DNA from: an uncultured Nitrososphaerales archaeon
GTDB taxonomy: Archaea; Thermoproteota; Nitrososphaeria; Nitrososphaerales; Nitrososphaeraceae
Direction of reading: 5' to 3'
Length of the DNA stretch: 64,000 nt
Assembly (NCBI GenBank): GCA_963713605.1
Contig: CAVQMO010000010.1
Coordinates: forward strand, 672,001-736,000
Positions 37,544 through 64,000 of this stretch are shown here, piece after piece (positions within the stretch are counted from its first letter, which is position 1; the number at the start of each line of letters is the position of its first letter). Both the position numbers and the translations under genes were made by a program. Under the pieces are notes generated by a model. That model had not been told where the DNA came from. It ran no database searches and worked only from the letters and a program-made list of their open reading frames with translations.

Positions 37544-37804
37544 CTATTTATTCATCCTTAGGACATCTACTTGTCCACTGTGTAGCCAGTCCTTTAGCTC
37601 TTCGTGACTTGGCTTTGCGTCGTGTTTTCCTGCCAGATGGAGGTGCAGTAGTACATAATTAACCTGATTTAACAATGGTTTGTTATTTTCATCCCCTTTT
37701 CTAGTCTTTGTCTTCAAATCGGCCGGAACAGTGGCCCACCATTCCTCATAGGTCCTCTTTGCTCCACTCTTAGGTTGTTGACCAAATCCTTTTGGTAATG
37801 TCAT
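37544..37804 (-). CDS. Small soluble hypothetical protein beginning MTLPKGFG (same as AmoX)
   Basis: 86-aa ORF with a TATA-like TTAAAA about 28 nt upstream on the minus strand. Confidence 0.85.
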   Translation of the reverse strand: MTLPKGFGQQPKSGAKRTYEEWWATVPADLKTKTRKGDENNKPLLNQVNYVLLHLHLAGKHDAKPSHEELKDWLHSGQVDVLRMNK

Positions 37805-37996
37805 ATTGTGAATAATAATAAATCCTGGCTTTTTAAGCGTTTATGTCTGAACAGTAACTATGAATGGTATGAAATCACCCTTATTGGATTCAAAATCTGA
37901 TCACACCTCCACGCCAGGTAAGCTGCAATTGTCCTTCTACCCTAAAACGCTCGTGATACTTTTGGACCTCTCGGAAAAAAAATTATTCCAAACAAT

Positions 37997-38224
37997 CTAA
38001 TCCGACGTAACGAATTTTTTTGAGATCCGGTAACTTACTCCCATTCCAATAAAGAGAGTCAATAAACCAAGTGACGCTGTAATTAGTAAGTCTGCCTTAA
38101 CATAATAGTGCATCAAAAAAGTCACGAGTATTGCTGGGACTGCCATAATTAGTGCAATTAGGCTGCTTACTCCGAACAATCTTGTCTTGCTTAATGGAGT
38201 AGATTCATCATTCCCCCCTTTCAT
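37997..38224 (-). CDS. Small two-TM membrane protein
   Basis: Two hydrophobic helices ending in S.RISKK. Confidence 0.75.
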   Translation of the reverse strand: MKGGNDESTPLSKTRLFGVSSLIALIMAVPAILVTFLMHYYVKADLLITASLGLLTLFIGMGVSYRISKKFVTSD

Positions 38225-38449: not shown

Positions 38450-38731
38450 GTGAGAAATTATGATAAAAATTATATGCATTCCCCGCCCTCGAGGATTGTC
38501 TTTTCCTATAAGAATAGCAAGGTTATCTCCCCCGACGATTTAATAAAGTCGTTTTGGCTAAGCACGGCGATGGCCTTAGTTCTAGTTCTACCACCGCTAG
38601 CAATTTTTGTCGGGATAAACCACAACACGGAGGATATCCTCACTGCCTCACTCATAGGATTTGGAGTCCACTTTGTGATCCTAGCTTTCTCTGTTAGAAT
38701 TTGCTCACAGTTAGAGAGACTATTCAAGTAA
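38450..38731 (+). CDS. Small two-TM membrane protein, apparent paralogue of 37997-38224
   Basis: Same pattern: S...AL....P....(loop)D.L.AS..G...F....S.RI. Confidence 0.72.
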   Translation: MRNYDKNYMHSPPSRIVFSYKNSKVISPDDLIKSFWLSTAMALVLVLPPLAIFVGINHNTEDILTASLIGFGVHFVILAFSVRICSQLERLFK

Positions 38732-38879: not shown

Positions 38880-39934
38880 ATGAGTTCTACTGTGAGTATG
38901 CCAAGTAAGATCTTTGGCACAGTGCTATCCCATGGATTAAGAGGACGCATGTTGTCTAAGAATGAGCTTCATACACTAGCCGAATCAAGGGATATAGATG
39001 AACTCGTTACAAGAATGAAGAACACCGTATATCTTGATGCACTAGCTAAGTTACCGAAGCCTTATACAGCAGAGAAAGCGGAGAGCGCACTTCGCGAGTA
39101 CCTCGTCAATGTCCATGCCAAGTTGGTAAATATCTCGGGGGGCTCAGGGATACTGTACACGTGTACTTTACAAAGTATATCACTTGGAATCTTAAATTGA
39201 TTTTAAAAGGAAAGGCCTTGGGCAAGTCATACGAGGAGCTCTTACCAAAAATTAATCTCCGAGCGGAAGAGTTAGTAGGGAGGCGAGATTTGATAGTAAA
39301 AGCATTAGTTGCCCAAGACTTTGACGAAGCAGTCTCTGTCCTGTCAGGTAGTGAATTCTTTGAACAGGCATCCAAAGCAGCTGCAGCTTATAAGGAGAAA
39401 AGGGACCTGAGGCTATTTGATATCTACCTAGACCATGTCTTCTACAAGACGCTCGATAAAGCCATGAAATCTGAGACACAGGATCCAGACATAAAGAGGG
39501 TGGTCTCAGTTGATATAGATTCGTATAACGTTTTAGCGGTGCTTAGAGGTAAGTATTGGAATTTGAGCCCTGCAGACATAAATGATTTAATTGTGACTAC
39601 TACTCCAAAGGTCACCAGAGAGACCCTACAAAAGCTCATGAACGCCGAAAAGATATCAGAGGCAGCTTCAGAGTTAGGGGATACAGTTTATAGGGAAATC
39701 ATTCCTCAGAACGTATCCGACGACATAGATATCATTATGCAATTAGAGGCAGGCTTTGAAGGGATAGGTTTGAAACGTGTTTTTAGTGCCTTTAGATCGG
39801 TTTTCAGCGTTGCCATCATGCTTGCAGCATTAAAGCTCATAATGATCGAAATAAGGAATCTTTCAGCGATTATTTCAGGTGTAGAGCAGAAAGTGTCCCA
39901 TGATCTTAATAGTCTCTCGACTTGTGACTCCTGA
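38880..39934 (+). CDS. atpC: A/V-type ATP synthase subunit C (d); frameshift near 39160
   Basis: LRGRMLS...LAESRDIDEL...TVY, WNLKLILKGK, LDHVFY, DIDSYNVLAVLRGK, EIRNLSAIISG. Confidence 0.88.
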
Positions 39935-59352: not shown

Positions 59353-60805
59353 ATGAACCCACGAAATAGGCTAGATGATGATCTCAAGTCTATTTCAGAT
59401 ATTATTGGGGACCTCGTAAGAAAAGAGGGTAAGTTCCTTATTCTATCGAGCCCATCCCCAGATGGAATAGCAGCAAGTAGTATAGTCTTCCAAACTCTTG
59501 CAAGATTAAACGCCAAATGCATATTGAGAAGCACTTCGAGTATAACAGATTCTTTACATATTGGAAACTCAGTTTCCAATGAATATGATTTATGCTTGCT
59601 GTTAGATTTCGAACATGAGTCAGTCGAAAAGCTTGACAAGAGCCTTCAAAACAAGTGGTTGCTGATCAGGCACCTATCAGATGAGATAGTTCCCGAAGCT
59701 AACAAAGCATATGACCAACGCGTTCTGAACATTAATAGGTACGAGCTCAATGGCTGGTCAGAAATAACCACTGCAGGGATATGCTATCTATTGTCGATAG
59801 CATTAGACACTAAAAATACAGATCTTTCTGTGCTGGCTGTACTTTCTTCGCTTGGCGAGAGACAGGATTGTGGAGAAGGTAGGTCACTTTTGGGAATAAA
59901 CGCTGAAATAGCCAAGGTTGGTGAATCCCAAGGTCTGCTGCAAAGCCAACCAGACGACCTTCTCATAGTAGGACACGAATGGAGGCCAATACACGAAGCA
60001 ATCGCTTTGACTCGTTTTCCATACATTGAAGGATTAACATGGAATTTAGAGAGGGCTAGGTCAATAGTGGAAAATTCTGGGATCAAGTTGAAGGAAAATG
60101 GGAAATGGCGAGTCTTCACCGATCTTCTGGATCAAGAGAAATGGTCAATCTATGAAGGGATTGCAAAATTCGTTGCCACTAATTCTGGCGCAGAGGTATA
60201 TTCCTTTAGAAGGTATACGTGGGATCAGCTACACCTTACTTAAGGAAGACAGGGGAACTCCACTTCGTGACGCGAGAGAGTATTCAGATCTCCTCAGAAT
60301 TTGCGGTAAAGCGCAAAAATCGGGAGTAGCAATATCAGTATGCCTTGGTGACCGCTTCAAGATGCTGGAAAAAGCTGAAGAAACAGTCGATCGTTATCTT
60401 GACATTCAGAGAAGATCTTTAAGCACTATATTCGCAGAGAAATGGAGGATTTGGGTTGACAGAGACATGGTCTTCATGAACGGGGAAGGGGCGGTGGCAG
60501 AGAATTCCCTCGAGGATATCATGACTCTTCTTGAATCCTCCCCACAATTCTTGCGCAAGATCATTGTTGGCAGGACGGTTACACAAACAGGTGCATACAA
60601 GTATTGTTGTCGAGTCAGTGACTTGCCTAAATTCACAGAGTTGGCATCAGCGATACGGAAATGTTATGGCGTTTCTAATGTATTACCCCATCCATTTGAG
60701 CCCTATGTGCTGTGTTGCGAAGTCCTTCCTAGCGATTTAGAAAACTTTGTCTCATGTTTGAAGGCTGCACCCAGGACCAGTGAATATGCAAGAGCCTCTC
60801 GTTGA
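59353..60805 (+). CDS. DHH/RecJ-like phosphoesterase family protein with degenerate metal motifs; frameshift near 60205
   Basis: DGIAASSI, EITTAGICY, LGERQD, GINAEI, LRDAREYSDLLRICG; conserved rps15-DHH-pcc1-serS order. Confidence 0.8.
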
Positions 60806-62410: not shown

Positions 62411-62965
62411 CTAGATCACTTGCCACGGTCTCGTTGCAAATGTTACGCCTAAGCCTGCTCCTATCACCATTACTTGATATATCACATTCGTCCATGGAAC
62501 CGGTTTGAATATCGGTTCGCCTGTCACTTGAACGGTTTGTCCTGGACCAAGTCCTGGGCCAATGGTCTGAATATTGAGCTGTGTATGGACATGATAAATA
62601 CCTGGTTCCAACGCTCTGACGGTTAGTGAGTATGGAATTGTTGCTTCTGGTTCGATGTCAAAGACGTTGCCGGGTGGATCACGAGCTATGAACTCCCATC
62701 TGTTGCCTGCATTTGTTGATTCACTGAAAAGCGACAACCACGCTCTAAGTGGTCTGTTCACCAAGCTCTGTAGTGTACCAGTTACCGTTAGCTCATCACC
62801 AGTCTGAATTGTCTGACCAGAAAAAGATTCATCTTGAATTCTCACAAACCTACTCTGGAGTTGGGCCTGAACACCATGTCCCTCTACAGAAGGCATAAAT
62901 GCGAATGCACTAGACATTACTAATACCGCAGCCAATCCTGTCAAGACTATAGCCTTGTTAATCAT
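62411..62965 (-). CDS. amoB: Ammonia monooxygenase subunit B
   Basis: Signal peptide then HGVQAQLQSRFV, ESTNAGNRWE, YHVHTQLN, GPGLGPG, FATRPWQVI. Confidence 0.98.
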   Translation of the reverse strand: MINKAIVLTGLAAVLVMSSAFAFMPSVEGHGVQAQLQSRFVRIQDESFSGQTIQTGDELTVTGTLQSLVNRPLRAWLSLFSESTNAGNRWEFIARDPPGNVFDIEPEATIPYSLTVRALEPGIYHVHTQLNIQTIGPGLGPGQTVQVTGEPIFKPVPWTNVIYQVMVIGAGLGVTFATRPWQVI

Positions 62966-63206
62966 TTGTAGTTTCTAAGCGATACCAGAAGAAACAAAGA
63001 TATATATTTTGCTGTAACCGATGAGCCAACTTAAGGCTCCTGCTTGAAGTAATCCTTAGTTTTTGATAAAGTCCTCAAAATGGATTCATAATTGCTTAAG
63101 CAATCCCTTTCAATGTAACTGATCCGGAATGTGGGATCTATTTCCGCAACCCGTATTAGTAACAGCAAAATTTAAAAAGGAAAGGACTCATCAAATATTG
63201 TATAAG

Positions 63207-63506
63207 ATGACATTACCAAAGGGATTCGGACCTGGTGGAAGACGAGTTGAAGGTGGCGGTAGTAGGGACGACATAGAAAAGATGATTGGGCGCAGAGTCG
63301 AAAATATGAAAGGTATCTTAGTTCTAGGCCTTGCATTGTGCTGGGCTGCAACAGCTGGTGGTGTTTACGTAGGCGTAACTGTTTATCCTTGGGCCTATCC
63401 CTTGCCAAGTGGAATATATGCCCTATCTGTGCTTACTGTTATCGAAGCTCTAGGCTTCTTCTGGATGTGGAAGATCTCAACAGAAAAACCTCTACGTCCG
63501 TACTGA
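63207..63506 (+). CDS. amoX: Ammonia monooxygenase subunit X
   Basis: MTLPKGFG...EKMIGRRVENM, YPWAYPLPSG, two TM helices, immediately upstream of amoA. TATA (TTTAAA) at 63171-63176 supports the 63207 start. Confidence 0.9.
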   Translation: MTLPKGFGPGGRRVEGGGSRDDIEKMIGRRVENMKGILVLGLALCWAATAGGVYVGVTVYPWAYPLPSGIYALSVLTVIEALGFFWMWKISTEKPLRPY

Positions 63507-63622: not shown

Positions 63623-64000
63623 ATGGTCTGGCTAAGACGTACAACGCATTATCTGTTCATAGTTGTCGTAGCTGTTAACAGCACGCTGCTGACTATTAAT
63701 GCAGGAGACTACATATTCTACACTGATTGGGCTTGGACTTCATTCGTCGTGTTCTCCATAGCGCAATCAACGATGCTTGTTGTAGGTGCCATCTATTACA
63801 TGTTGTTTACGGGAGTGCCAGGGACTGCGACCTACTACGCCACTATAATGACGATTTATACTTGGGTTGCGAAAGGGGCTTGGTTTGCTCTTGGATATCC
63901 ATACGACTTCGTTACGGTACCGGTGTGGATACCATCTGCAATGTTGCTGGACCTGTCTTACTGGGCAACAAGAAGGAACAAACACGCGGCGATACTAATA
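63623..64000 (+). CDS. amoA: Ammonia monooxygenase subunit A, truncated by window edge
   Basis: Manual translation MVWLRRTTHYLFIVVVAVNSTLLTINAGDYIFYTDWAWTSFVVFSIAQSTMLVVGAIYYMLFTGVPGTATYYATIMTIYTWVAKGAWFALGYPYDF... Confidence 0.99.
   Translation, partial: MVWLRRTTHYLFIVVVAVNSTLLTINAGDYIFYTDWAWTSFVVFSIAQSTMLVVGAIYYMLFTGVPGTATYYATIMTIYTWVAKGAWFALGYPYDFVTVPVWIPSAMLLDLSYWATRRNKHAAILI

Follow-up and report, generated by a model that had tools for sequence, protein, structure and literature searches.

The octapeptide that opens both an 86-residue soluble protein of a Nitrososphaerales archaeon and the AMO membrane subunit AmoX belongs to a conserved N-terminal tag, M-T-[LM]-P-K-G-aromatic, which recurs in otherwise unrelated proteins of AOA. 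Our tentative preference, held at a little under even confidence, is that the tag is a portable linear docking motif read by one putative cytoplasmic receptor at or near AMO.

The common start of AmoX and the 86-residue protein

The window, that is, the whole stretch of 64,000 nucleotides analyzed here, contains both genes (Table 1). As the first-pass annotation had observed, both proteins begin with MTLPKGFG, with synonymous differences at codons 5, 7, and 8 and with 21 of the 24 nucleotides identical. A six-frame translation of the 4.09-Mb genome contained LPKGFG at these two sites only, and a tblastn comparison aligned residues 1-8 only, in agreement with the earlier view that the remainder of the two proteins is unrelated. 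The chance of such an octapeptide match is about 3e-9 per gene pair, 7e-6 for ~70 genes, and 0.024 for all pairs of 4000 genes; given the last value, the single-genome match is suggestive only, and we accepted it as real because the motif is conserved in the homologues of both proteins.

Table 1. Features of the two tagged genes and of the amo locus in the window.
Feature	Position	Strand	Basis or remark
86-residue protein gene	37544..37804	-	tagged paralogue of AOA-signature four-helix protein
N-terminal tag, residues 1-8, consensus M-T-[LM]-P-K-G-[FYH]-[GS]	37781..37804	-	sequence, homologue alignment
Linker, residues 9-16, polar/basic, variable	37757..37780	-	1.7-2.7 bits at six positions; pLDDT <50 at residues 12-14
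Core domain, residues 17-86, predicted helices 19-23, 28-35, 45-57, 67-76	37547..37756	-	alignment, model
TATA-like box, -33..-26 from ATG of 86-residue gene	37830..37837	-	read in sequence; position recurs in orthologues
amoX (AmoD in 2026 preprint), 99 residues	63207..63506	+	between amoB and amoA
Same tag at AmoX N-terminus, then Gly-rich linker	63207..63230	+	sequence, homologue alignment
TATA-like box of amoX, -36..-29 from 63207	63171..63178	+	read in sequence
amoB (context)	62411..62965	-	PF04744 match
amoA (context), cut by window end	63623..64000	+	downstream of amoX

The start codons of both genes were supported. Twelve open codons precede the 86-residue gene without any alternative in-frame start, and many orthologues of the tagged genes have an in-frame stop only a few codons upstream. 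The amoX frame contains an earlier ATG at 63129; the TATA-like box lies downstream of that ATG, and the accessible part of PMC3379541 reports a common ATG and TATA element across amoX genes. The upstream frames and the TATA-like boxes thus back both starts, and the concern raised beforehand that the real starts might differ was not borne out. From the position of its TATA-like box, the transcript of the 86-residue gene is probably leaderless or nearly leaderless.

The conservation of the tag was examined in the best 120 of 425 core homologues and the best 120 of 1090 AmoX homologues, both ranked by similarity to tagged queries. The core set consisted of 27 short calls, 2 over-long calls, and 91 proteins with an N-terminal extension, and all 91 opened with the motif: P4 and G6 were found in 91/91 and K5 in 90/91, position 3 was L or M, and position 7 was F, Y, or H. 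MTLPKG opened 119 of the 120 AmoX homologues, with M-T-L, K, and G present in all 120. Loss of the motif in orthologues, which had been named as grounds for abandoning the proposal, was therefore not what we found. What is conserved is M-T-[LM]-P-K-G-aromatic, not the exact octapeptide; identity over all eight residues holds in this genome, and the octapeptides of AmoX and the tagged core were identical in 10 of the 39 genomes in which both were read, their genes having been picked by the tag pattern itself, and position 7 of the two proteins did not co-vary. P4 and G6 are invariant while the linker drifts, and synonymous codons vary at tag positions 2-6, which upholds the earlier suggestion of selection at the protein level.

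Carriers of the tag and distribution of the core domain

A degenerate tag pattern gave 133 matches in 61 Nitrososphaeraceae genomes (family assigned by named records; one genome, G321, unpublished), versus 5 for the reversed control. Among the 81 matches that were classified, all from genes picked by the pattern itself, 35 were AmoX, 25 tagged core, 10 phasin-like, 6 repeat-stalk, and 5 short or uncertain, so that the motif, proposed as common to two proteins, is also carried by two more protein types. Each genome had 1-8 carriers, and the tagged core, phasin-like, and repeat-stalk proteins occurred in 15, 4, and 2 genera, respectively. In every carrier type the tag was at residue 1, followed by a variable linker or a low-complexity stalk. 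The tag is accordingly a conserved island in a variable, low-confidence region, as judged from the alignment and model pLDDT, and it recurs in unrelated proteins (AmoX, core, phasin-like, and repeat-stalk), both of which are marks of a short linear motif. In the literature searched, neither the motif nor the N-terminal tag of AmoX was found in print; subscription papers and supplements may name the core family.

In the tagged phasin-like proteins (10 loci, four genera), the spacer is long and acidic, and at least one of them ends in a DUF2795 domain. Their nearest Atlas clusters are putative phasins (score 0.89) and neither Pfam nor NCBIfam gave a phasin model match, so we treat the label as a lead only. 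About 15 strong matches to the phasin-like domain, on contigs C1, C2, C3, C10, C12, and C13, were seen in this genome, all without the tag and several in pieces; both this family and the core family thus have untagged paralogues here. The repeat-stalk carriers (nine loci, two genera) consist of 8-residue charged repeats in variable number, and their intact frames end in a short aromatic-rich C-terminal segment, the C-termini not being clearly related between the two genera. No kinship of the two repeat-stalk groups with each other or with the phasin-like family was demonstrable by hhalign (<=1.3%).

Beyond the Nitrososphaeraceae, the pattern identified the AmoX tag in 22 of 23 genomes of a second family, probably Nitrosopumilaceae to judge by its gene order and its AmoX of three helices; the 23rd bears the tag with a TTG start. 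One Nitrososphaeraceae genus has Tyr at tag position 3 of AmoX. At 4/4 loci read from two further families, probably early-branching AOA, AmoX has no tag, so that AMO can work without it. Outside AOA, the pattern matched 5 times in 84 genomes, once at a real gene start, that of an aldehyde:ferredoxin oxidoreductase with the same six residues followed by Tyr (L268:3-1517 (-), genome G342); the string can therefore arise independently of AMO. Viral contigs gave one weak core match and one chance tag match.

The distribution of the 70-residue core domain was more uniform. Among 151 genomes of the order, 65 had the core and amoA, 1 (96% complete) the core alone, 1 (67% complete) amoA alone, and 84 neither. 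Presence in all AOA and absence from non-oxidizers, two criteria for AMO subunits in the accessible text of PMC10030591, are approached closely by the domain, which 66 of the 67 genomes of four AOA families and 0 of the 84 amoA-lacking genomes contained. A class-wide search with a single-protein query found the core in 229 of 301 genomes, three of them unpublished and none of these three the sole support of any claim here, and in 0 of 64 genomes of other orders. As related genomes are not independent, this distribution makes the core a marker of the clade; it does not prove that the core is linked to AMO. On the question posed in the first-pass annotation, whether the protein is universal in and exclusive to AOA, the domain is universal in AOA, but the tagged copy was seen in Nitrososphaeraceae only; the usual core copy has no tag. 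This genome has eight core matches including the 86-residue protein, one a fragment, and only the window copy is tagged. At G044:C4:63970-64435, two core copies are arranged tail to tail, and one of them has diverged strongly. In a quick tree of 92 cores and 72 columns, tagged and untagged copies interleaved (6 changes, at least 2 forced), so that the tree does not fix how often the tag was gained.

From an alignment of 81 sequences, AlphaFold2 gave a model of mean pLDDT 81.6, with four helices that cover 36 of residues 17-86 and a low-confidence N-terminus. The core gave no sequence match in Pfam, NCBIfam, or PDB and no Foldseek match in PDB or BFVD; the best VIA hit (Z 4.4, rmsd 2.8 over 58 residues) was tied with unrelated rows, and the best Atlas score was 0.79. 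For the YqgQ/DUF910, SAP/HeH, and Xis-like HTH folds, the profile and fold comparisons gave no more than such weak scores, and Xis-like HTH was absent among the 25 listed of 28 Pfam families. A resemblance between the last helix and the ends of Xis/BldC-type HTH domains gained no support beyond such scores, and neither did one between the first helix and the p53 motif (P53_TAD, best E 0.004, 17/81 members). A profile search of 1.84 billion representatives gave 134 matches, mostly small stand-alone proteins or fragments. The few fusions, to a C-terminal rhodanese, to a 701-residue membrane protein, and to others (P0331, P0287, P0308, P0339), suggest that the core may itself be a portable module, although some may be assembly artefacts. 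Large repeat proteins with a unit resembling the first half of the core were also observed (P0297, P0330, P0367).

The 86-residue gene lies 25 kb from amoX and adjoins pyrI, and in other genomes the neighbors of core genes are a ferredoxin gene, an RNase-like gene, or variable. The 86-residue gene has a small hydrophobic ORF on either side, at 37997-38224 (-) and 38450-38731 (+), neither of which matched Pfam, and similar ORFs flank the tagged gene at two other loci (L035, L047). Elsewhere in the window, a frameshift or assembly error has divided an ATP synthase C/AC39 subunit gene at 38880-39934 (+) between two overlapping frames (Pfam positions 6-84 and 87-334), and a DHH-CID-containing ORF followed by an overlapping ORF in another frame at 59353-60805 (+) is possibly one gene broken by a frameshift.

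Possible roles of the tag

If the tag is a docking motif, M-T-[LM]-P-K-G-[FYWH] would act at the extreme N-terminus on a flexible tether, and the acetylated peptide would adopt a small turn and fit into a pocket of a single cytoplasmic receptor common to the carriers. This receptor would be AMO's own cytoplasmic cap or, somewhat more probably, another cytoplasmic protein. The tag would have arisen on AmoX and later been gained by duplicated genes in Nitrososphaeraceae, sending their products to the same place. On this view, the 86-residue protein would be no structural AMO subunit but a housekeeping AOA protein of which one copy has been given a new address.

The processing of the tag is documented for AmoX of N. 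viennensis in the published AMO-band cross-link table, in which the AmoX peptide starts at acetylated Thr2 with Met removed (PMC10030591). Among the first 28 of 48 matches (27 rows; PMC10030591, Dataset S1), the links of AmoX Lys5 were mostly within AmoX (4 rows, 141 spectra), and the others led to the S-layer protein (8 rows, 14 spectra), AmoY (4, 11), AmoC (3, 9), AmoZ (1, 3), AtpI (2, 2), four other proteins including Amt1 and oligosaccharyl transferase, and one decoy. The links to AmoC and AmoY reach their C-termini. Such promiscuous linking makes Lys5 look like an exposed, mobile residue and not like one held inside a socket. The N-terminus of AmoC is also acetylated, though it has no tag, and acetylation is therefore not tag-specific (PMC10030591). 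The table thus confirms the AmoX start and a free, exposed lysine near cytoplasmic termini, but it stops short of showing a socket.

A signal for N-terminal processing or turnover, which would set the level or lifetime of a protein and not its location, is an unlikely alternative; the tag would be, for example, a site read by an acetyltransferase, a protease, or a proteasome adaptor, or would act on leaderless mRNAs as a nascent-peptide enhancer. Its constant position at residue 1, the processing of AmoX, and the structurally unrelated carriers all agree with such a signal, as do the TATA-like boxes about 30 nt upstream of the tagged genes (69/69, 76/90, 10/10, and 5/7 across the sets, by a loose pattern and without a shuffle control) and the rarity of SD-like sites (0/90 tagged core and 3/69 amoX genes). 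However, a general signal should have more than 1-8 carriers per genome, AmoC undergoes acetylation although it has no tag, and the long flexible linkers behind the tag suit a tether.

A more specific form of the docking reading involves AmoH, a cytoplasmic, loop-rich trimer of N. maritimus AMO whose gene is unidentified and which was modeled as poly-Ala; it contacts the C-termini of AmoC, AmoY, and AmoZ (accessible text of bioRxiv 10.64898/2026.08.31.748207). The AmoX sequence finds no PDB chain, and the AmoH density is deposited as PDB 9XJ2. The core, predicted to be helical, fits the loop-rich description poorly; the AmoX tail is a better candidate for part of this density. The acetylated tag might plug into a socket in the AMO cap, the AmoX copy being part of the AmoH density, and soil AOA might have grafted this plug onto ferredoxin-linked, phasin-like, and stalk proteins. 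By docking on AMO or competing for it, these proteins would link ammonia oxidation physically to the supply of reductant and to granules that store carbon. We consider this elaboration decidedly unlikely.

We give still less credence to a membrane-surface anchor that needs no protein receptor, with Leu, Pro, and the aromatic in the headgroup layer and Lys/Arg on tetraether-lipid phosphate. Lipid anchors usually need less sequence specificity than the invariant T, P, K, and G imply; moreover, His replaces the aromatic in 17 of the 91 extended core homologues, and the AmoX linkers of the Nitrosopumilaceae type are not basic. In favor of an anchor are the basic residues that follow the tag in the core, the phasin-like proteins, and many AmoX tails, the enrichment of phosphate headgroups at the cytoplasmic face of AMO seen by cryo-EM (bioRxiv 10.64898/2026.08.31.748207), and the promiscuous cross-links of AmoX to membrane proteins (PMC10030591).

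The first-pass annotation had cast the 86-residue protein as a possible AMO regulator, assembly factor, or electron link. The broader possibility that the core family is itself an AMO subunit, regulator, or electron link, possibly AmoH and perhaps bridging ferredoxin to AMO, appears very doubtful, and the 86-residue protein as an AMO subunit is not supported. Co-occurrence of the core with amoA (65 of the 67 AOA genomes, 0 of the 84 others) speaks for it, but many AOA-only genes will show the same distribution, and the tagged copy is not universal. Moreover, the gene next downstream of the core encodes a 2x[4Fe-4S] ferredoxin at 5/5 untagged loci from three other families and, within Nitrososphaeraceae, at 5/7 untagged versus 2/70 tagged loci, so that the arrangement is present in all four AOA families. 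In this genome, an untagged paralogue (contig C1, 99732-99950) precedes the gene of a 97-residue 2x[4Fe-4S] ferredoxin (100076-100369); yet between the two lies a T-rich terminator followed by what looks like a separate TATA-like box for the ferredoxin gene, and the core has no Cys and no metal motif conserved across families. AmoH is cytoplasmic and modeled as poly-Ala, which leaves room for the core, but AmoH is loop-rich and the core is predicted to be mostly helical. Synteny with amo, another criterion in PMC10030591, was seen for neither the 86-residue gene nor core genes in other genomes. No hydrophobic span was evident in the 86-residue protein on sequence inspection, and the model is a small helical domain, at variance with the transmembrane helix that PMC10030591 lists among the criteria for AMO subunits. 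When the published AMO-band cross-link data were re-mined as the annotation had proposed, none of five core-family peptides was present in the four supplementary files, in which bracket notation could hide three, and the strain may not have a tagged copy. A complex prediction of AmoA, AmoC, AmoX (18-99), and the 86-residue protein scored 0.00 twice, without controls, and counts neither way.

It is very improbable that the start region of amoX was captured as an expression cassette and that the tag spread in this way, with no shared binding role. The near-identity of the two starts in this genome and the many duplicated, decayed core copies in Nitrososphaeraceae genomes would fit such a capture, but little common sequence apart from a TATA-like box is visible by eye upstream of the amoX, tagged core, and phasin-like genes, and codon 2 differs, being ACA in 86/90 tagged core genes and ACT in 53/69 amoX genes (all picked by the pattern itself). 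This explanation is already weakened by the constancy of the tag residues in 15 genera, next to a linker that drifts. That the four-helix core is the tag receptor, with the tagged paralogue a ligand-receptor fusion that self-caps or polymerizes, is hardly credible: the domain is present wherever tagged AmoX is, and residues 4-11 reach pLDDT >=50 in the monomer model, but the domain is also universal in two families with untagged AmoX, and residues 1-10 average a pLDDT of only 49.

Relation to known systems and biological meaning

As a putative docking motif, the tag would work like known short linear motifs. Prokaryotic docking motifs on flexible termini include encapsulin cargo-loading peptides, the SSB C-terminal tail, and the PCNA PIP box. 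The tag resembles these in being a short conserved peptide at a flexible terminus that is reused by unrelated proteins; it differs in sequence, in its strict position at residue 1, in its acetylation on AmoX, and in that its receptor is putative. Among AMO components, AmoX has the same motif on a flexible tail, and both the AmoX and core families are confined to AOA in the genomes searched, whereas AmoX, a membrane subunit encoded beside amoA, has no similarity to the 86-residue protein past residue 8. The accessible text of PMC10030591 and of bioRxiv 10.64898/2026.08.31.748207 gives no function for the AmoX tail. Like the 86-residue protein, AmoH is cytoplasmic, and it touches the AmoC and AmoY C-termini, to which AmoX Lys5 cross-links in N. 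viennensis; in contrast to the predicted helical core, it is a loop-rich trimer, and the Nitrosopumilaceae-type core copy has no tag. Likeness to phasins (PhaP-like granule proteins) belongs to the second tagged family and not to the 86-residue protein.

The tag bears on the open question of how AMO is put together, controlled, and fed with electrons on its cytoplasmic side, where the new archaeal structure shows a chain without an assigned gene. Should the tag prove to be no more than a signal for turnover or for lipid, our finding is of modest significance. The 70-residue core is in any case an uncharacterized marker that tracks amoA almost perfectly. The tag gives a specific sequence to thread into the existing AMO map, and, as seven residues common to AmoX and several soluble proteins, it offers a cheap synthetic bait for its putative partner in organisms in which routine genetics is absent.
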